Shown piece after piece: positions 4,362 through 37,635 of a stretch of DNA of 53,524 nucleotides. Positions within the stretch are counted from its first letter, which is position 1. Each line of letters starts with the position of its first letter. Source of the stretch: a virus (taxonomy: Duplodnaviria; Caudoviricetes); IMG/VR virus record IMGVR_UViG_3300013016_000004, positions 1 to 53,524 of that record; one strand, written 5' to 3'. The notes under the pieces were generated by a model. The model made no database searches and was not told the origin of the DNA. It was given only the letters and a program-made list of their open reading frames with translations. The translations under genes and the position numbers were made by a program.

Positions 4362-4461
4362 CGGGCGAAATTCCCAACGGCTTTCGACCCGACGCAATAG
4401 CAAACGCGGGATTCCTTTCAAGGCTCTCGCACATCACAGGCGATTCCAAACAAGGCTCGCC
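4362..4461 (+). promoter_or_regulatory. Three tandem related hairpins in the scaffold 5' leader
   Basis: Each reads stem-ATTCC-loop-GGCT-stem (4362-4391, 4406-4430, 4439-4461); GGGAGG RBS follows at once. Confidence 0.65.
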
Positions 4462-4477
4462 GGGAGGACAAACGTCA

Positions 4478-5395
4478 ATGGCACAACTACCTGACGCCGT
4501 ACAACGGCAGATCGAAGAGGCTGAACGGCTCGAAGCAGGCATCAGCGAGGCTCCCGTAGAGGATTCCCCTGAAGAGCAAGCGGATTCCCACGAGGCTCCG
4601 CAAGAGGAAACCCCTGACCCGAAAGATGAGCGCATCTCTGAACTTGAACGAGAGCTTCAGTCGGCGCGTGTCGAACAAGGCCGGGTCAAGACCCTCAACC
4701 AGCAGCTTCGCACGGCACAAGAGCAGATCGAACAGTTGCAGTCCGAAATTGAAACCCTCAAAACCCAAGAACCGCAGGCTCCCGTCTCAAGCGCTAAGCG
4801 CGATGAGTTGGTGGATTCCTACGGCGAGGATCTTGTCAGCTACATGGAAGAGGTGGCAAATGCCCAGGCCGCAAAGCTTCAGGGCGAGATTGACCGACTG
4901 AAGGGCGATACCGGAGAGGTCAGGCAGGCACAGGCCGCAAGTCAGCAGGAACGCTTCTGGTCAAGCCTCAACGCCGCCCATCCCGACTGGCAAAAGATCC
5001 AGGCCACCAAAGAGGGGCAGGACTTTCTTCTGTCGAGCGTGCCCTACGACATGCAGGGGCGCACCTTCGATGATCTGCTGCAAGAGGCCGCAAGATCGCA
5101 CAACGCGCAGGCCGCAATTGACGTGTTCGGTGGCATGAAGCGCCACATCGAGGCCAACAAGAAGGCGTCTCCGCAGGACCGGGCGAAATCCCAGGTCGTT
5201 CCCGGCAAGGGGCCGGGGGGAACGCCGCCGACTCAAAACACCAAGCCGACCTTCACGCAGCGAGAGGTCCATCAAGCCTCACTCGAATACGCCAAGAACC
5301 AGTCGCTTGATATCCCGCAGAAATACGGGGCCAAGACGATTGAAGAGTGGGACGAGATGGTCAACCTGGCAGCACTCGAAGGGCGGCTCAAGTAA
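4478..5395 (+). CDS. Capsid scaffolding protein
   Basis: Acidic, coiled-coil, AHPDW motif, C-terminal AALEGR; between portal and capsid; RBS favours ATG 4478 over 4310. Confidence 0.75.
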   Translation: MAQLPDAVQRQIEEAERLEAGISEAPVEDSPEEQADSHEAPQEETPDPKDERISELERELQSARVEQGRVKTLNQQLRTAQEQIEQLQSEIETLKTQEPQAPVSSAKRDELVDSYGEDLVSYMEEVANAQAAKLQGEIDRLKGDTGEVRQAQAASQQERFWSSLNAAHPDWQKIQATKEGQDFLLSSVPYDMQGRTFDDLLQEAARSHNAQAAIDVFGGMKRHIEANKKASPQDRAKSQVVPGKGPGGTPPTQNTKPTFTQREVHQASLEYAKNQSLDIPQKYGAKTIEEWDEMVNLAALEGRLK

Positions 5396-5408
5396 AGGAT
5401 AACCAGCC

Positions 5409-6392
5409 ATGAGTGTACCTGTTTCCGTACAAAATCCGAGTGCATACGGCTCTGCCGCCTATGCCGACAATTCCGGCCACATGCTTGAGACCGTATTCAG
5501 CGCAAAGACCCTGCGCAATTTCTACGGCTCGACCGCGCTGTGGGACATCTCAAACACCGACTATGAGGGCGAGGCCAAGTTTAACGAAAAGGTCATGATT
5601 CGCCGCGACCCCGATCCGACCTTCACCGAATACACCAAGGGTAAGACGGTGACGTTCGAGGACGCAGAGACCCCGGCCATCGCGCTTGAGATCAACAAGG
5701 CGCAGAGCTTTGCCGTCAAGCTCGACAAGATCGACATGGCGCAGACCAAGCTCAAGCCTCTGGACCGCGCATCTGAAGTGGCCCGCAAGAAAGCCAAACT
5801 CATCATCGAAACCGACGTGTTCAGTGGCGCTTACGCCGGTGCGGACGCGGCCAACATCGGCGCAACCGGTGGCGCGATCTCCGGTAACATCGACTTCGGC
5901 ACCGCCGACGCCCCCCTGACCCTGGTTTCGGCGACCAACCCCGGCGCTGGCGAAGTAAACGTCATCGAGTGGATCACCCGCCTTTCCCAGGGCCTCTACG
6001 AGCAGGAAGTTGAGCTTGACGAGGGCAGCGGCTGGATTCTTCTGCCGCCCAAGATCGCCTCGCTGATTAAGAACTCCGATCTCAAGGACGCCTCGATCAC
6101 CGGCGATGGCAAGTCGATGCTGCGCAACGGTCGGCTCGGCATGATCGACCGCTTTACCCTCTACGTCAATAATCGCGTGCCCATCGTTACAGTTGCGGGC
6201 ACCCCTAATGTTTTGTCCTACCAGGTCATGGCCGGCACCAAGGAAGCCCTGACCTTCGCCATGCAGCTTGAGGACATCAACTATCACGAAAAACTGGAAA
6301 CCACCTTCGGCTCCGGCATCAAGGGTCTGTTCGTGTGGGGTTCCAAAGTCGTGCAGCCCAAGGCGCTGATTACTTCTCGCGTTGCCAAGTAA
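5409..6392 (+). CDS. Major capsid protein
   Basis: 327 aa after scaffold; ISNTDYEGE, NGRLGMIDRFTLY, FG..IKGLFVWG.KVVQP motifs; highly biased codon usage; followed by a terminator. Confidence 0.85.
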   Translation: MSVPVSVQNPSAYGSAAYADNSGHMLETVFSAKTLRNFYGSTALWDISNTDYEGEAKFNEKVMIRRDPDPTFTEYTKGKTVTFEDAETPAIALEINKAQSFAVKLDKIDMAQTKLKPLDRASEVARKKAKLIIETDVFSGAYAGADAANIGATGGAISGNIDFGTADAPLTLVSATNPGAGEVNVIEWITRLSQGLYEQEVELDEGSGWILLPPKIASLIKNSDLKDASITGDGKSMLRNGRLGMIDRFTLYVNNRVPIVTVAGTPNVLSYQVMAGTKEALTFAMQLEDINYHEKLETTFGSGIKGLFVWGSKVVQPKALITSRVAK

Positions 6393-31164: not shown

Positions 31165-31297
31165 TTGACATCCTCCCCTCCCTAAAGGAAGGGGATTCCC
31201 GATCCGGAGACCGAGATGGTTGACGCTTCACAGAAAACAGGCTTCAAGACCCGGAGGTCAGGCGGCGCTTACGTCGTCTCCTATTGCGAGGCTTACG
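31165..31297 (-). ncRNA. omegaRNA-like scaffold retained at the right end of the HNH element
   Basis: GGAG..GTAAG, GTGAAGC and GGAATCCCC hairpin ending TCAA, as in tnpB right-end RNAs; 5' boundary approximate. Confidence 0.55.
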
Positions 31298-31339
31298 GTA
31301 TGTGTTATACTGTAAGTCCATCAGCGATAGGAGATAGAA

Positions 31340-31933
31340 ATGCGACAGTGCTCAAAATGCCAACGAAAACTCAACGACCAGATGTTTACTTCATGGGGGC
31401 GAAACCAGTGCCGGGATTGTCTCAATGCTCTAAGAACGAAGAACAGAAGGAAGAACGGCGTAAAGACTCGGGAACAGCAGCGACTGTACATGCAGGAATA
31501 TCGGAAGAAAAACAAAGACGAGATATTGCAACGCCAAAAAGACTACCGTCGAAACAACGCTATCAAGTGGCTGTGGAAGCAGATGTACAGAAGAAAGGAT
31601 GTCTTAAATATATCAAGGGAAGAATTTTATCGAATCTACGCCGTCCCTCAACAATGCCCAGTGCTTGGTATTCCAATATCATTCGATATGACCAGGGACA
31701 ACTTGCCGTCAGTGGACAGAATAGATTCAAGCCGGCCTTACGAAGTTGGGAATATTTGCATCATGTCATATCGAGCCAACATGATAAAAAGTGTCGGGAG
31801 CGCGGTAGAACACCAGAAAATTGCAGATTGGCTAAATCAGAACGGCTTCGGGGAAATTGCAGGAAAATGTTTCGACTACAAGCACCCGGCCGCCACAACG
31901 GTGCTTTTTGGAAGGGAAAGGAAGCCAATCTGA
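31340..31933 (+). CDS. HNH-type (DRID) homing-endonuclease-like protein
   Basis: N-terminal CxxC..CxxC, basic helix, CPVLGIP, PSVDRIDSSRPY..GN....RAN..K; AGGAG RBS; lower GC. Confidence 0.8.
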   Translation: MRQCSKCQRKLNDQMFTSWGRNQCRDCLNALRTKNRRKNGVKTREQQRLYMQEYRKKNKDEILQRQKDYRRNNAIKWLWKQMYRRKDVLNISREEFYRIYAVPQQCPVLGIPISFDMTRDNLPSVDRIDSSRPYEVGNICIMSYRANMIKSVGSAVEHQKIADWLNQNGFGEIAGKCFDYKHPAATTVLFGRERKPI

Positions 31934-32103
31934 ATTTTGAAAGCGGTTTGCAGGCGCTGCTTCATGCTCACAAGTATGCCATAGTTCTTGTAAACCCACA
32001 ACCACACGAGGAGCGCGCTTTCCTCCCAGGCCTGAACGCCGGGGTCTCCAGCGCGAAGATATGATGAGCGGGCATGTATGCCCTCAATGCAGAGAGAAAA
32101 GCC

Positions 32104-33299
32104 ATGTCCTGGAACGATGACACGGAGCAGGAACTTTTGCGGGTCAAGCGCGCCAACCCCGACTTTGGCTGGCGCAGACTGACCAAGGCGGTCGGCTGCG
32201 GAGAGCGAAAGACCAAGCGCTTCCTTGAACGCTTTGCGGCCGGCAAACACGCCGATGAGCGCCAGGACGAACGCGAGGTGGTCCGGCTTAAACGAAAGCT
32301 CAAGGAGGCCGAAGAACAACTCAAGAAAAATGTGGCATTCAACGCCATTGTCGGCGAACTCAAGAGCGCAAAGCTCAAGCCACCGCAGTGGGTCACGCCC
32401 GAGCGAAGCAGTTCAAACCAGGCCATTGCCTGCGCCTGCCTTGGCGATACGCATTTCGATGAAGTGGTTGACCCGGAGCAGATCGAAGGCTTAAACGCTT
32501 ACAGCCGCGAGATTGCCCTGAAGCGCCTGCAAAAGTATTTTCGCTCCGTGGTGGAGTTGGGCCGTGATTACTTCTCCGGCGTGCAGATCCAGGGGCTATC
32601 GCTCAACCTTCTTGGCGATATTGTCTCCGGAAATATCCACGAAGAGTTGCAGCAGACCAACGAAGCTGGAATCATCGACACATGCCTTTACTGGTCTGAG
32701 CAGCTTGTGGCAGGCATTGAGCAGATGGCCTCTTATTATGGCCGGGTGCATATCGAAGCGGTCGTAGGCAACCACGGACGGCTGAGCAAAAAGCCCGTCG
32801 CTAAAAACAAGGTGCATGACAACTTCGATTACCTGATTTATGCACTGATCGTGCGCCACTTTCGCGGGGCCCCGGAAATCACCATGCGCGCTTCAGGCTG
32901 CTCCGACAGCGACTTTCAGATCTACAATACCCGCTACCGGCTCAACCACGGCGATCAGTTTCGTGGCGGCTCCGGCATTGCCGGGGCGCTCTCCCGCTGC
33001 TGATTGGCGACTCCCGCAAACGCAAACGGGCAATCTCTGCCCACAACCCCTACGACTACCTTGTCATTGGTCACTGGCACCAGACCATTGACCACGGCAG
33101 CATCATCGGCAACGGCACCCTCAAAGGGTATGATGAATACGCTTACGACAAGAATTTCAACTTTGAACCGCCCCAGCAATCGTTCTGGCTCACCGATCCG
33201 CACAAGGGCATTACGCTCAAAGCCCCGGTGCATGTAGTGGACAAGTCCGAGGATTGGGCCATTGAGAAAAAGGAGGTGCCGTCATGGATGGCCGCGTAA
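32104..33299 (+). pseudogene. Calcineurin-like metallophosphoesterase, frameshifted near 32995
   Basis: GDTHFDE, LGDIVSG.IH, VGNHGR, HGD, then GHWHQ and NG.LKGYDEYA in a shifted frame; one extra C restores ALSPLLIGD. Confidence 0.75.
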
Positions 33300-33427
33300 A
33301 ATGTCAGGGACGAACTGAGGTCTATTCCCGTGTCTGTGGCTTCTTTCGCCCTGTGCAGCAGTGGAACGTGGGCAAGAAGGCGGAATACGCAGACCGCAAG
33401 CCCTTTATCGTTGACGCCTGGAAATAG
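33284..33427 (+). CDS. 47-aa stand-alone NrdD C-terminal (glycyl-radical loop) protein
   Basis: MDGRVKCQGRTEVYSRVCGFFRPVQQWNVGKKAEYADRK matches the class III RNR EVYSRV.GY.RPV..WN.GK..E..DR pattern; AGGAGG RBS. Confidence 0.8.
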   Translation: MDGRVKCQGRTEVYSRVCGFFRPVQQWNVGKKAEYADRKPFIVDAWK

Positions 33428-33486
33428 CTTTGCGATAATACCCTCAAGCCGTCTCCCATCTCCGACGCCTCATCTCACTCCCCGAG

Positions 33487-33520
33487 AAAGCCCCGGCCTC
33501 ACCGCTGGGGCTTTTGTTTT
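33487..33520 (+). terminator. Intrinsic terminator ending the late operon
   Basis: AAAGCCCCGGC..GCTGGGGCTTTTGTTTT. Confidence 0.75.
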
Positions 33521-33618
33521 GGGACAATTTGGGTACAATGGGACAAAAATTCTGCGTTTCAACACAATTCAACACGGCTCAACATTTCAAGTCTTTTCAA
33601 CTATTTTTTGATTAGTTA
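33521..33618. repeat. Short direct repeats resembling tyrosine-integrase att arm sites
   Basis: GGGACAA/GGTACAA/GGGACAA and TCAAC(A) x4 in an AT-rich convergence region. Confidence 0.35.
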
Positions 33619-33674
33619 CAGACCTACCCCGTCGGTGATATACGGTTAAATCGCGGCCTATCCCGATGTTATCT
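33619..33674 (+). other. Degenerate attC-like site 0
   Basis: GTCGG(T)GATA...TATCCCGAT pairing, then GTTATCT core; left core is degenerate. Confidence 0.35.
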
Positions 33675-33902
33675 GCAACCTACATGACGCCCGTCACCGT
33701 CTAGTCGTGGCGTCAGACCACCACCAAACAATGACCCAGGTTTAAGGTACCGACACCCGGTCCCATAATCGACGTAGAGAACCAAGCCGGATCGTTCTTT
33801 GTTCGCACGATCATCGGTGTCGTCATAAGGCATTGTTAAAAATCCCACGACAACATAAACGATTAATCCAGACCAAAAGAATATTTTGACCACTTTCCAC
33901 AT
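33669..33902 (-). CDS. Cassette gene: single-TM protein (DUF6440-like)
   Basis: D.TD...RSG..LYVD.GTGC.YL...GGLTPRLD.DG motif; stop codon lies in the GTTA core. Confidence 0.7.
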   Translation of the reverse strand: MWKVVKIFFWSGLIVYVVVGFLTMPYDDTDDRANKERSGLVLYVDYGTGCRYLKPGSLFGGGLTPRLDGDGRHVGCR

Positions 33903-33917
33903 ATGTTCACCTTTCAC

Positions 33918-33976
33918 AGATAACCATGGCGTGCAGTCGGACTACTGCGCACCCGCTGACGCCTGGGGCGTTCAAA
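33918..33976 (+). other. attC-like site 1
   Basis: AGATAAC..GGCGT(G)CAG(T)CGG..CCGCTGACGCC..GTTCAAA with two extrahelical bases. Confidence 0.75.
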
Positions 33977-33991
33977 TGTCTTTGCGCAAAA

Positions 33992-34252
33992 TCAGTCCTC
34001 GATTGTTTCTTCTACATCATCTACGTGCATCTCGATCCCCATGTCGGCCAACTTTCCGTACCCCTCAGCAAATGGCTCAAACTGGTCGCAGAGTCCGCGT
34101 GCTTGCAGTTGTGCTAAATGCTTGAGGTGATCCTCAACGGTGTGAAAAGCGAACATGTAGCTCCGAAAATCAGCCATCCATTCTGGAGTGAACTTCGACT
34201 CGTCGTACTCAATCTCAACATACTGCGTCACAACAACAGTTTTCTTTGCCAT
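33992..34252 (-). CDS. Cassette gene: hypothetical protein
   Basis: AAGGAGG RBS; lies between attC1 and attC2. Confidence 0.7.
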   Translation of the reverse strand: MAKKTVVVTQYVEIEYDESKFTPEWMADFRSYMFAFHTVEDHLKHLAQLQARGLCDQFEPFAEGYGKLADMGIEMHVDDVEETIED

Positions 34253-34293
34253 ATAACCTCCTTTATGGCCGCTTCGCGCCCAGCGCAAAGTCA

Positions 34294-34389
34294 TTTGAAC
34301 CATCCAGTGAAGCGGTTACGCTCGCTGTTCTCGATAGGCTCGCAGGCGCTCCGGCTGTTCTGCGACCCCGGCTATCGCTACCGTTATGC
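34294..34389 (+). other. attC-like site 2 (L boxes degenerate)
   Basis: TTTGAAC...GTTATGC cores, each complementary to the neighbouring cassette end. Confidence 0.55.
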
Positions 34390-34653
34390 GCCACTTGGAA
34401 GCTCTCGGCGCTCGGCAGGATTCTTATAATCAATGTCAGTCCACCACTCTTGTGTGCAGTCGTAACAAGTCCTGTACCCCTCGCCGCAAAGGTCTTTATT
34501 CGCAGACCACGGGCATCCGCATTCTGGACACTCACAGTCATACTCGTAGTGCATTCCTGCCGCGATTGCATCGTCCTCGGTCTTTTCTCGCCGGTCGCGC
34601 CTAACCCCCGCTGCACCGGACTGAACAACGCCATTGCTTATCGAATATTTCAT
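34384..34653 (-). CDS. Cassette gene: CxxC..CxxC zinc-finger protein starting inside attC3
   Basis: CPEC...CYDC; stop codon lies in the GTTA core of attC2. Confidence 0.6.
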   Translation of the reverse strand: MKYSISNGVVQSGAAGVRRDRREKTEDDAIAAGMHYEYDCECPECGCPWSANKDLCGEGYRTCYDCTQEWWTDIDYKNPAERRELPSGA

Positions 34654-34700
34654 TGCGTCTCATCCTTCCCACCGCAGCGCGGTGAGCTAAAACGTTAAAA
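34599..34700 (+). other. attC-like site 3
   Basis: GCCTAAC-ccccg-CT(G)CACCG...CGGTGAG-ctaaaac-GTTAAAA. Confidence 0.8.
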
Positions 34701-34865
34701 ATGCTCTTCTTCTTCCAACTCAACCCGCTCAAACCACACCCCCAAGTGCCTCAACCTCTGCGGAGCGGGAGCCAGGCCACTCTGTACCAACCCTTCACGG
34801 CGCATCCAGGCTACCACGTCCATGCCTTCTATTCGGTCGGCGCGGCCTTTGTTTGGTTTAGCCAT
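34695..34865 (-). CDS. Hypothetical 56-aa protein
   Basis: GGAG RBS; stop codon lies in the GTTA core of attC3. Confidence 0.5.
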   Translation of the reverse strand: MAKPNKGRADRIEGMDVVAWMRREGLVQSGLAPAPQRLRHLGVWFERVELEEEEHF

Positions 34866-35103
34866 CTTGTCTCCACCACTGAAAACAGGATGATTTTTCG
34901 CACCCTGCACACTCAACTTTCCCACTTTTCAACAAGTTAAAGTGCACACTTCCGCAAGAACATACATGCGCTTGGTGGTCGTAAATATCCTCAACTTTTT
35001 TATCGGTCACGATTTCTTTTGGGTTCACATCTTTGCCGCAAAAAACACAGTGAAACCGACATTCGCTGTTGTCTATTCTGTATACTTGGAGTTTCTCGGA
35101 ACA
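34858..35103 (-). pseudogene. 3' part of a Cys-rich zinc-finger gene cut by the tnpB IS
   Basis: CVFC, CSC..CAGC motifs; no own start downstream of the IS right end. Confidence 0.45.
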
Positions 35104-35230
35104 TTGACGTCTCCCCACGGATGAATCCGGGGGATTCCTAATTCGCAGAATCTAGCCCGACTGTGTTTAGACACAGACAGGACTTACGGACTCTCCAAAG
35201 GCTGACACCGCCCGCCCGGCGGCCAAGATG
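35104..35230 (-). ncRNA. omegaRNA of TnpB (overlaps tnpB 3' end and right end)
   Basis: Established tnpB locus architecture; terminal hairpin present; 5' boundary approximate. Confidence 0.6.
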
Positions 35231-36300
35231 TTAATTGCTGCGTTGACGTCCCGATCGTGTTCTGCCTTGCAGTCGGGACACGACCAGCTTCGGACAGAAA
35301 GAGGCAGCTTGTCCATGACAAAGCCACACGCCGAGCATCGCTTGCTCGACGGGTACCACTTGTCGATACCGACAAGTTCTCTGCCGTACCAGCGTGCCTT
35401 GTATTCCAGCTGCCGGACGAACTCCGACCAGCTGGCGTCGGCGATGGATTTGGACAGACAGCCGTTGCGCAGCATGTTCTTGATTGAGAGTGTTTCGAGA
35501 ACGATCGTTTGGTTCTCACGGATCGTCTGGGTTGAGAGTTTATGGAGAAAGTCCCGCCGGGTGTCGGCGATTTTCGCATGAAGCCGGGCGACCTTGACCC
35601 TGGCCTTAGTGCGGTTGCGTGAACCCTTTTTCTTCTTCGCCAGCCGCCTCTGGAGCTTCGCAAGCTTTTTCTCGTTGCGGCGAAAAACGTTCGGAGCAGC
35701 CACCTTCTCGCCCGTGGAGAAAACGGCAAAGTGTGACAGCCCCAGATCGACGCCGACTGCGGCCTCAACTTTTGGAAGAACTGCCACCGCATCGTCGCAC
35801 AGCATAGAGACGAAGTATCTGCCCGCTGCATCCTTGGAGACGGTCACGGTTGTGACCTTGGCCGCCTTGGGGAGAGTGCGGGAGAAGCGAATCTTGAGCG
35901 GCTGCTTCATCTTCGCCAGGGTCAACACCCTGCCATCCCACTTAAAGGCGGAGGACGCATAGGTGGCCGCCTGACGATCATGCTTTGAGCGAAAGGATGG
36001 ATAGCGTGTCCGGCCTGCGAAGAAGTTGCTGAATGCCTGTTGCAGGTGACGAAGGGCTTGCTGGATGGGGACACTTGAGACGTCGTTGAGCCAGGCGTAC
36101 TCGGGGTTTTTCTTGAGCTGTGTCAGTGCCGCAGACGTCTCGTTGTAATCGAGGCGCTCACCCTTCTCAAACCAGGCATCGGTGCGTAGGCGCAGCATGT
36201 GGTTGTAAACGAAACGAGCGCAGCCGAACGTCCGGGACAGGACATCTTCCTGCTCGGGCGTTGGGTAGAAGCGAAATTTGTACGCTCGTTTTATATCCAT
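35167..36300 (-). CDS. tnpB: RNA-guided endonuclease TnpB
   Basis: RAYKFRFYPT, FGCARFVYN, GVDLG, IVLETL, CSAC..CPDC, DRDVNAA; all RuvC acidic residues present. Confidence 0.95.
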   Translation of the reverse strand: MDIKRAYKFRFYPTPEQEDVLSRTFGCARFVYNHMLRLRTDAWFEKGERLDYNETSAALTQLKKNPEYAWLNDVSSVPIQQALRHLQQAFSNFFAGRTRYPSFRSKHDRQAATYASSAFKWDGRVLTLAKMKQPLKIRFSRTLPKAAKVTTVTVSKDAAGRYFVSMLCDDAVAVLPKVEAAVGVDLGLSHFAVFSTGEKVAAPNVFRRNEKKLAKLQRRLAKKKKGSRNRTKARVKVARLHAKIADTRRDFLHKLSTQTIRENQTIVLETLSIKNMLRNGCLSKSIADASWSEFVRQLEYKARWYGRELVGIDKWYPSSKRCSACGFVMDKLPLSVRSWSCPDCKAEHDRDVNAAINILAAGRAVSAFGESVSPVCV

Positions 36301-36394
36301 AGCTTACAGTGTACCGCACTTTCGTGTAAAAACCAAGCCAAAACCTGCGCCTTATATCCCCATAGATGAATCTAGGGGTTTTACGGCGCATCCG

Positions 36395-36479
36395 ATAAAT
36401 CTTTGATTTCTTCCGTCTGGTATTCTTCGCGTAGAGGTTCGAGGTAAACGCCGCCTTTGCCGCAAATGTCACATGCCAT
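36395..36479 (-). pseudogene. 5' part of a CxxC gene (MACDICGK...IKDL) cut by the tnpB IS
   Basis: AAGGAG RBS; frame runs into the IS left end. Confidence 0.55.
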
Positions 36480-36604
36480 ATCTTCTCCTTGTGTCTCATC
36501 GTGCGCGGTTTTTGAGCTACAAACATTGTCTCCCCGCCCCGGCCAAGCGGGACCATCCCGCAACCCATAGCCTATAATCTGCGCCGGAGCGGGGAAGGTG
36601 TTAT

Positions 36605-37456
36605 TTACCATAGCCACATTTGACAGTCAGGCTTGTCTCCTTCATACGCCTTGCCACTAACCCACCAATTCCAAAGATCGTCTACAGTTTCCATTTTTTC
36701 GATCCAGCGATCACCGCCGTCTTTTCGCGGGACACCCTTCCACCGCTCCCAATACGCATCAAATCCCCTTCGCCAGAGCTTTTCATACTTCGGCCACCTG
36801 GCAAAATCTCGGGCCTGTCCTTTCGGTCCGCCCATTGGACAACCGACACAGCCAAGGCGCGTAAACCCTTCATCGTAGAGTGAGCAGTAAGGCATGTTTT
36901 GCTGTTTAATAAATTCCCAAACATCGCGATCCGTCCAGTGAATTATCGGGCAGAGAATCGGACGATGACTTTTGCGGTCAATCGTTACCTCTCGCCACGC
37001 CCCCTTTCGTCGATGGGACTCTTCGGCCCTCACGCCAATGCCTTTAAACGACTCTTTCCCGCCCTGCTCCTTGTAAATCTCGCAACACCAACGCGCAAGC
37101 CTTGTCGGAGGTCCGCAACTTTTATCTGCCATCTTGTGGATGAGGTGCATCTCGGGGTTATTCCACCGAACCTCGGGATATTTCCGCTTGATAAACTGCA
37201 CCAGCTCTGGCGGATCAATCGTCACGTTGTTGTACCAACTGGCATACTTAACGCCTGCCATTTTAAACAGACGCTCCATGACGATCGAATCTTTCCCCCC
37301 GGAGAATGCAACGTAATAGCCCTCTTCAGAAAGTTCCAGCGCCATCGGTTCATAGTGCTGAATCAAATCAATGGCCGTCTTTATTTTCTGCTCAAGCGGT
37401 CGGCTGATCGCGTATTGATAACGGTCTTCTTCTGTTTCCTCAAATAGACCCATCAC
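36605..37456 (-). CDS. PAPS reductase-family protein
   Basis: VAFSGGKDS, RWCC..YKE, GVRAEES.RR, PI..WT..DVW, RLGCVGCP. Confidence 0.9.
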   Translation of the reverse strand: MMGLFEETEEDRYQYAISRPLEQKIKTAIDLIQHYEPMALELSEEGYYVAFSGGKDSIVMERLFKMAGVKYASWYNNVTIDPPELVQFIKRKYPEVRWNNPEMHLIHKMADKSCGPPTRLARWCCEIYKEQGGKESFKGIGVRAEESHRRKGAWREVTIDRKSHRPILCPIIHWTDRDVWEFIKQQNMPYCSLYDEGFTRLGCVGCPMGGPKGQARDFARWPKYEKLWRRGFDAYWERWKGVPRKDGGDRWIEKMETVDDLWNWWVSGKAYEGDKPDCQMWLW

Positions 37457-37635
37457 TTCCCCCTTCCAAACAACTCAGCAAACCCCGGCGGCATCTTCGT
37501 ATTATCCGCCCACCTCCCCAACCGCCGCTTACTCTCACACTCCCCGCACAGATACGCGATGTCTTTACGCAGACGGGCTTTTGTGAGGCTTCCGAGGTGG
37601 GTTCCGCATGCTGTGCAGTGGATTTCACGCGCCAT
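37453..37635 (-). CDS. Small CxxC..CxxC protein
   Basis: CTAC...CGEC; coupled to flanking genes. Confidence 0.55.
   Translation of the reverse strand: MAREIHCTACGTHLGSLTKARLRKDIAYLCGECESKRRLGRWADNTKMPPGFAELFGRGK

Follow-up and report, generated by a model that had tools for sequence, protein, structure and literature searches.

A probable array of three integron-type cassettes without an integrase, their genes antisense to attC, at the end of a phage early operon

Gene and site content of the array

The window analyzed here is the whole stretch of 53,524 bases that makes up the complete IMG/VR virus record IMGVR_UViG_3300013016_000004, and it carries at 33668-34700 an array of small genes interspersed with sites resembling attC, the recombination site of integron cassettes. 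This array probably consists of three integron-type cassettes lacking an integrase, i.e. a cluster of attC sites lacking integron integrases (CALIN), at the 3' end of the leftward early operon of the phage. Structural genes occupy the + strand up to about 33,430, the long leftward operon extends over the - strand between about 53,240 and 33,669, and the array adjoins the terminator (33487-33514) of the converging + strand genes. A reading of this region made from the sequence alone (hereafter, the sequence-only reading) had placed all array genes on the - strand at the distal end of the early operon, and the gene map confirms this placement: the four genes gA, gB, gC and gD are all encoded on the - strand and are followed by gE, a TnpB gene and a gene resembling phosphoadenosine phosphosulfate (PAPS) reductases. 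The features of the array are listed below, with G^TT designating the crossover point and R'' and R' the inverse and outer core of each site.

33601-33668, + strand: conserved flank, ending at the G of the first G^TT ("site 1" of the sequence-only reading is 33619-33675)
33669-33970, + strand: cassette 1, 302 bp, gA antisense; start GTTATCT against R'' AGATAAC, 7/7
33669-33902, - strand: gA, 77 amino acids, hydrophobic segment at the N-terminus; predicted open reading frame (ORF)
33918-33976, + strand: site 2, attC of cassette 1, 59 nt; 5' untranslated region (UTR) of gA on the other strand
33963-33987 and 34283-34307, + strand: 25-nt inverted repeat around gB, 21/25 overall and 17/18 in its core
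33971-34383, + strand: cassette 2, 413 bp, gB antisense; start GTTCAAA against R'' TTTGAAC, 7/7
33992-34252, - strand: gB, 86 amino acids, small acidic phage protein; phrog_19384 (4.3e-23)
34294-34389, + strand: site 3, degenerate attC of cassette 2, 96 nt; R'' and AACCA retained
34384-34694, + strand: cassette 3, 311 bp, gC antisense; start GTTATGC against R'' GCCTAAC, 6/7
34384-34653, - strand: gC, 89 amino acids, Cys-rich; ORF and ribosome-binding site (RBS) assigned by sequence
34599-34700, + strand: site 4, attC of cassette 3, 102 nt; R' GTTAAAA contains the gD stop codon
34695-34865, - strand: gD, 56 amino acids, conserved gene on the operon side of the array

The three cassettes (302, 413 and 311 bp) thus fill the interval between the conserved flank and gD, each running from one G^TT to the next and comprising a single small gene, oriented against the attC top strand, plus an attC of 59, 96 or 102 nt. 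Attachment sites in the window and in two partially related phage contigs, L106 (found by a gA search) and L110 (found through gD), span 58-132 nt, and the usual attC range is 57-141 bp. The L boxes of site 2 (CGT-G-CAG / CTGACG, with one bulge) and of site 4 (GCT-G-CACC / GGTGAGC) present the extrahelical base of the L''/L' helix, which is absent in site 3; the bulged base is a G on the top strand in the window sites, where the bacterial consensus has a C. On the mRNA strand, each attC constitutes the 5' UTR and RBS of its gene and, for gC, also its first codons, since the gC RBS and first 17-18 codons lie inside site 4. An RBS and first codons inside the attC loop are likewise found in ORF85 of L106, which belongs to an attC scoring 24.8 bits in the searches described below, and in X3 of L110.

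The gA product matches PF20037 DUF6440 (1.5e-6) and phrog_14094 (1.2e-11), and tblastn with gB identified matches at 33-54% identity in 21 phage records, including Vibrio phage VP882 and Caulobacter, Brevundimonas and other phages. The gB relatives in IMG/VR and metagenome contigs reach just 48-51% identity and lie in unrelated contexts, and no Pfam or PHROG family was found for gC. A blastn search of the region against INPHARED phages returned no match, Rfam yielded 0 matches at E up to 1 in 33000-37000, the fold of the gB unit RNA is unexceptional (z -0.16), and a promoter and terminator scan remained at shuffle level, with neither element found within the spacers. Three stop codons do fall inside the GTTA core, as had been observed earlier: the TTA of GTTA forms those of gA (33669-71), gC (34384-86) and gD (34695-97), and the gB stop, TGA (33992-94), is not part of a GTTA. 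Read on the opposite strand, three of the four GTTA cores are therefore a TAA stop followed by C, and this TAAC stop context is seen in 3/4 genes at the array versus about 4/65 other predicted genes.

Each cassette start is complementary to the core of its own attC

The sequence-only reading had rested on six octamers, in which the first bases of each unit are complementary to the inverse core of its own downstream site, and all six are found where it had located them: GTTATCTG at 33668 with CAGATAAC at 33917, GTTCAAAT at 33970 with ATTTGAAC at 34293, and GTTATGCG at 34383 with CGCCTAAC at 34598, the last with one mismatch and falling within the gC reading frame. The window holds 314 perfect 8-mer inverted pairs at 150-450 nt spacing in its 53.5 kb, and 2 of the 7 pairs among them that start with GTT are located at the array. 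From the window alone the case against chance is therefore modest; with the relatives included, it is overwhelming. Across nine single-gene cassettes (three each from the window, L110 and L106), R'' can pair with the opening seven bases of the cassette to which it belongs, at 7/7 positions in seven cases and at 6/7 in two. At the variable positions, R'' matches its own cassette start in 34/36 cases and the adjacent core in 10/36, and 0 of 100,000 permutations scored as high, in agreement with the earlier claim that the pairing partner is the unit's own start and not the neighboring core. The same rule is followed at 34/40 positions over 10 cassettes from six further phage contigs, by two more perfect pairs in contig L017 and by the cassette carrying a PAPS-reductase gene in contig L014 (GTTCTAA / TTAGAAC). 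Complementarity to the cassette's own start is the classic footprint that a circular form and recombination at G^TT would be expected to leave.

Complementarity of the gB cassette extends beyond the usual seven bases of the R box, reaching 17/18 (21/25 over the whole repeat), an extension seen in no other cassette examined; the 25-nt inverted repeat has two matches in the window versus 0.15 expected. A reading of this repeat as a dif/Xer-like or invertase site was discarded, as it shows no internal dyad. Searching IMG/VR with the 18-mer that opens the gB cassette returned six loci without similarity to the window genes, where about 3.5 random matches had been estimated from an assumed collection size. 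One of these, an exact copy at 9343-9360 of L017, does not lie at a recognizable cassette boundary and may be due to chance. A similar search with an 18-mer from the flank identified only the L110 contig and one unrelated AT-rich contig (L111).

A phage covariance model places sites 2 and 4 in an attC family

Two covariance models of attC were used. The bacterial model (R1) was derived from the IntI1 integrase of plasmid R100, via 80 bacterial integron loci and 42 attC sites, 28 of which were aligned. The R and L helices of this alignment are 92.6% paired, a value attained in 0/500 shuffles. All 11 bacterial attC sites held out from the model were recovered, at scores of 34.3-57.4 bits, along with 12 array sites missed by the original extraction, and noise off the arrays did not exceed 11.1 bits. 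Among true negatives, seven unrelated loci (70 kb) scored at most 11.2 bits, the window outside the array at most 8.8 bits, and the locus of a distant gD-like match (L119) presented no attC above 10.9 bits.

The best R1 match in the window coincides exactly with site 4, and the model identified sites in both partial relatives (L106, 31.1 bits with E 4e-6, and 24.8 bits; L110, 14.4 bits) and in L017 (30.5, 28.6 and 21.7 bits). Phages sharing with the window just a homolog of the PAPS-reductase-like gene had been intended as negative controls for R1, and proved to hold arrays: R1 returned five matches of 15.9-31.3 bits in L014, and matches of 29.2 bits in L011, 23.4 in L013, 23.3 in L016, 20.6 and 18.6 in L004 and 17.1 in L008. 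In all, 5/14 PAPS-reductase loci have an R1 match at E <= 0.01; no match was obtained at E up to 10 in L003, L005, L006, L009 and L010, or at E up to 2 in L012.

A second model (R2) was built from 21 phage attC sites, excluding those of the window and their homologs in L106 and L110. In the underlying phage alignment, the rows of which were chosen with R1, 95.2% of the L helix is paired, and both partners vary in each of its five pairs. The two highest scoring R2 matches in the 53.5 kb, both strands considered, are 34599-34700 (21.3 bits, rough E 0.0044) and 33918-33976 (20.7 bits, rough E 0.0062). These correspond to sites 4 and 2, 623 nt apart; both matches are full length, lie on the + strand and end precisely where complementarity to the cassette start predicts. 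By their fit to this model, sites 2 and 4 belong to an attC family common to at least eight other phage contigs.

The four attC-like sites proposed by the sequence-only reading hence fare differently. Sites 2 and 4 are substantiated by their R2 rank, and site 3 is degenerate, with a partial R2 match at 34294-34333 (9.9 bits, E 3.4). Site 1 has no match with either model and is not an attC; it is part of the conserved flank, which is 76% identical to L106 6975-7045 and 90% identical to L110 5103-5172, with a different first cassette directly abutting it in both. The flank is a candidate primary insertion site or attI-like site. Site 3 may have decayed, and gB and gC could then be mobile only as one block.

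Related phages differ by whole cassettes

A comparison with related phages, which the sequence-only reading had named as a check, revealed the expected differences. Unit 1 of the window, from GTT to GTT (33668-33976), is 91% identical to L106 3927-4235, and the neighbors on both sides of it differ. Otherwise, within 19 kb of the window, only gD (about 73-75%) and the flank at 33601-33671 (76%) have a match in the L106 record, and identity is hence unequal between the gA cassette and gD. In L106 the gA cassette directly follows the TAAC of gD and the 724-bp block containing gB and gC is absent, the junction falling inside a CGTT common to window positions 33969-72 and 34693-96. About 2.7 kb of additional units lie in L106 between the gA GTTA and the conserved flank, and both junctions are at GTTA. 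L110, in which gD is 70% identical to that of the window, has three other cassettes in the interval from this flank to gD, so that in each relative a different cassette stands directly after the gD TAAC. Together with the complementarity of cassette starts to their own cores, the breaks of L106 inside GTT bear out the proposal that these cassettes were once circular and were inserted by crossover at G^TT.

Public contigs provide a further junction at the same point. In two wastewater sequencing runs from different studies, contigs depart from the window exactly after the GTT at 33970-33972, with sides of 37-42 letters, and resume at 33599 after eight other letters. This joint would represent another context of the same crossover point; a tandem arrangement, a circle or another genome are all compatible with the contigs. 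A second joint, 33634 to 34691 in contig set X8, has a side of just 23 letters and an undefined middle and is too weak to count; X8 also contains a contig of 331 nt spanning 33980-34310 and leaves 34472-34688 uncovered, a gap that carries no weight. The junction of an excised gA circle (33970 joined to 33669) was not seen in public contigs, which cannot show rare forms.

Genes are antisense to their attC sites

The R1 and R2 matches in the window lie on the + strand and the genes on the - strand, as the position of the extrahelical bases had suggested to the sequence-only reading. The polarity of the model was verified on plasmid R100, in which a training attC is found directly behind the aadA1 stop codon, on the sense strand of that gene, so that the strand reported by the model is the canonical sense strand. 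Because of this check, the phage genes can be regarded as truly inverted. The layout at the array, with the family-assigned genes gA and gB on the - strand and attC on the + strand, departs from that of canonical cassettes, in which the ORF is sense to the attC top strand and attC lies 3' of the ORF.

Inversion is general among the phages analyzed. The attC matches in L106, L110 and L017 are likewise on the strand opposite to the genes; R1 matches are opposite to the strand of the PAPS-reductase gene in 16/16 cases in one set of matches (E up to 2) and in 9/9 in another; and antisense placement of the gene relative to its attC is found without exception in the nine phage contigs examined. Homologs of the PAPS-reductase-like gene constitute inverted cassettes in other phages, with attC just upstream (L014 5907-6938, L011 5919-5979, L008 214-274, L007 5885-5942). 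The window gene itself (36605-37456) is without attC and is absent from contigs of three other studies, in which the joint (36607 to 37466) is not at G^TT.

No integron integrase is encoded in the phage record

The sequence-only reading had reported no integron integrase (IntI), and profile searches agree: the complete record has 0 matches to TIGR02249 and PF00589, and thus neither IntI nor any other tyrosine recombinase. None of the eight array-bearing phage records (0/8) exceeds the TIGR02249 integron-integrase cut-off; five encode an integrase of the usual phage type or part of such an enzyme, and the other three give no match to tyrosine recombinases. Serine recombinases and Y1 transposases were not found in the three records tested, the window included. 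A complete integron carries intI, attI and the cassette promoter (Pc) beside its array, and this set is not present in the window.

In L017, an ORF of 137 amino acids within 4379-5454 covers only the catalytic C-terminus of a tyrosine recombinase (PF00589, 30.3 bits). Its best NCBIfam name is integron integrase, at 18.4 bits only. The ORF is on the strand opposite to the array and about 230 nt away from the first G^TT, which is the geometry of intI in an integron. This ORF may be a decayed integrase.

Assessment of the cassette interpretation and its alternatives

An array counts as a CALIN when two or more attC sites are clustered and their neighborhood lacks an integron integrase, and the window presents two R2 sites (E 0.004-0.006) in a record devoid of IntI. 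We consider it likely that the array comprises three integron-type cassettes without an integrase at the 3' end of the leftward early operon, and the comparisons support the structural part of the sequence-only reading, namely that the cassettes would derive from circular forms, with crossover at G^TT, inverted genes and no integrase.

Several observations weigh against this interpretation. R1 scores in the window are at noise level (site 4, 9.5 bits, E 2.7; site 2, 3.6 bits) and the model returned nothing for sites 1 and 3, so that the attC covariance search advocated by the sequence-only reading favors it with the phage model and fails to do so with the bacterial one. The two models are not fully independent, since the R2 training sites were picked with R1, and the E-values stem from a shortened calibration. 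Site 3 shows no L-box pairing and folds as two side-by-side hairpins. Folding, another proposed check, was weak: single-strand folds of the four window sites are no better than shuffles on either strand (z -1.09 to +0.96), and restoring the own R' of nine sites from the window, L106 and L110 gives top-strand values of -2.98 to +0.75, where the 42 real attC sites have a median z of -5.0 (range -11.4 to -2.3). The 2,038-bp unit of L106 breaks the rule of complementarity to its own start, and one L013 pair matches at 0/4 positions. Not all rearrangements in these phages involve the crossover point, as the block at L106 4958-6208 occupies the opposite side of gD in L110, with breakpoints not at G^TT, and two other indels near the array in public contigs (31164/32064 and 36607/37466), which served as control junctions, have joints without GTT. 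Finally, no host, IntI or excised circle was seen. The 31-bit site of L106 also folds weakly (z -0.4 top, -1.7 bottom). The window sites would probably fall below the threshold of a bacterial attC model.

Among other explanations, the array could be passive cargo, a piece of a chromosomal integron array gained by illegitimate recombination, the sites of which are now inert in the phage. The decayed appearance of the window attC sites and the recombinase fragment adjoining the L017 array would fit such an origin. Against it, the cassette genes belong to phage families (phrog_14094, phrog_19384, phrog_7314, phrog_19515) and all point the same way as the phage operon; the window, L106 and L110 share a conserved flank and gD but have different cassettes in between; the window and L106 resemble each other more closely in the gA cassette than in its flanks; and neither the cassette DNA nor its proteins show similarity to the 80 bacterial integron loci. 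We regard passive cargo as unlikely.

A system other than IntI might also move the units, be it an unrecognized phage enzyme, single-strand annealing between similar spacers, as in the gene shuffling of T4-type phages, or IS200/IS605-like single-strand transposition beside a TAAC target. This is suggested by the reuse of attC 3' halves, with GCCCCAGG..CAGCGGGTGCG occurring after four different left sequences, by the TnpB gene 470 bp from the array and by the weak hairpins. The match of each cassette to its own core, however, demands a fixed crossover within a 7-nt core without flanking homology, the sites fit bacterial attC models with the correct bulge and polarity, and the searched records offer neither a Y1 transposase nor a serine recombinase, with 3/8 lacking any tyrosine recombinase match. 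Transposition of the IS200/IS605 type was dropped for want of a Y1 transposase, and a non-IntI system is on the whole quite improbable. Chance combined with a stop-codon artefact, according to which GTTA would simply reflect a TAA stop with a C after it, the octamers would pair at random and the spacers would be unremarkable intergenic sequence, was the first reading of the locus and draws on the 314 inverted pairs at this spacing, the three GTTA cores that double as stop codons, the shuffle-level folds and the R1 noise, but it is ruled out by the recurrence of own-start complementarity in independent cassettes of other contigs and by R2 matches with exact ends, is at odds with the precise L106 breaks at GTT and with the scarcity of TAAC stops elsewhere, and is barely credible.

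Returning to integron-type cassettes, we infer that a host IntI acting in trans is the simplest enzyme for their recombination. The integrase would be supplied by the host cell during infection, and the cassette genes would be transcribed by read-through of the phage operon. Reverse-oriented cassettes would not be transcribed by a bacterial Pc, whereas a phage operon running against the array would express them. A broader proposal, which we put forward only tentatively, is that environmental phages keep their own pool of reverse-oriented cassettes and borrow host integrases to swap accessory genes, with the flank at 33601-33668 acting as a phage-borne attI-like site. The genes swapped in this manner would include PAPS-reductase-like genes and small zinc-finger proteins.

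Other features in the vicinity of the array

Four TCAAC/CAAC motifs, about 10-17 nt apart, lie at 33557-33601, between the convergent terminator and the conserved flank. Upstream, contigs of three other studies skip an 899-bp segment at 31165-32063 (31164 joined to 32064), which contains an ORF of 197 amino acids with a Cys-rich N-terminus (31340-31933), possibly a homing-endonuclease-like gene. Contigs of three other studies also present one additional C after 32992. The exonuclease-like frame at 32074-33003 stops soon after this position and reading goes on in another frame, so the extra C points to either a frameshift or a mistake in the assembly of the record; no relative was found for this exonuclease. 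On the operon side, the TnpB (IS605 OrfB) gene at 35167-36300 encodes 377 amino acids, is complete by Pfam and lies in a record without TnpA. Many short, high-depth joints of public contigs fall within this gene, as expected of a repeated element. In L106, an ORF at 4734-5240 on the - strand, inside the 2,038-bp unit, resembles by eye the zinc-finger N-terminus of an ISL3-type transposase.

Relation to known systems and implications

The phage array shares with the bacterial arrays of class 1 and sedentary chromosomal integrons the G^TT crossover, the complementarity of R'' to the cassette's own start, the R and L boxes, with a bulged base in sites 2 and 4, the attC size and the promoterless single-gene units. 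It differs from them in having no intI, attI or Pc, in its ORFs being antisense to the top strand, in a variable attC loop that is long, unstructured and contains coding sequence, and in its predicted transcription from a phage operon running against the polarity of the array. In chromosomal integrons, reverse-oriented cassettes are a minority, mostly toxin-antitoxin modules with their own promoters. Their ORFs are antisense as in the phage array, where this orientation is instead the rule, holding for 9/9 single-gene cassettes from three phages and for every attC match in six further contigs. Phages of the T4 type shuffle genes by homologous recombination between promoter/stem-loop (PeSL) repeats, a system that resembles the one described here in its small accessory genes, plastic region, repeated motifs and lack of a dedicated phage integrase; here, in contrast, attC-like sites are involved and crossover takes place at one set point, G^TT.

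Arrays of attC without IntI have been described in phage genomes by Qi, Rajabal, Ghaly, Tetu and Gillings (2023; PMC9892861). According to the article text, application of IntegronFinder to 10,705 NCBI phage genomes identified 21 with integron parts, 17 of these being CALINs, IntI1 recombined 5/6 of the phage attC sites tested, at G^TT, and cassette exchange via bacterial integrases was proposed, with virulent phages among the carriers. The cassettes of two phages are described there in the typical direction, whereas all the window genes are antisense, with the RBS or the 5' coding end inside attC, and related phages differ here by whole cassettes. Neither inverted ORFs nor shuffling of cassettes between phages is mentioned in the article text (PMC9892861), the supplementary tables of which, outside this comparison, may bear on orientation; a literature search found no other paper on phage attC arrays. 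Phage attC clusters are hence already known (PMC9892861), and what appears to be new is an architecture that is inverted throughout and embedded in an operon, together with differences from phage to phage at the level of cassettes. As to how a first cassette might enter a phage genome at a non-att site, insertion of cassettes by IntI outside att sites (attG), which the preprint text of Loot et al. (bioRxiv 10.1101/2022.09.11.507474) describes for bacterial genomes, would offer a possible route, with expression from a nearby promoter.

In methodological terms, standard attC models can miss arrays whose loop carries coding sequence. Integrons are regarded as bacterial devices, and the antisense orientation of all genes in nine phage contigs points to a cassette population distinct from bacterial ones. 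Beyond the rare phage attC clusters described in the text of the 2023 report (PMC9892861), the footprint of G^TT recombination is seen here cassette by cassette, and whole cassettes differ between related phages. If a host integrase is indeed involved, phages would be using a bacterial adaptation system to diversify their accessory, perhaps counter-defence, genes, and the question of where integron cassettes originate would gain a new and testable source.

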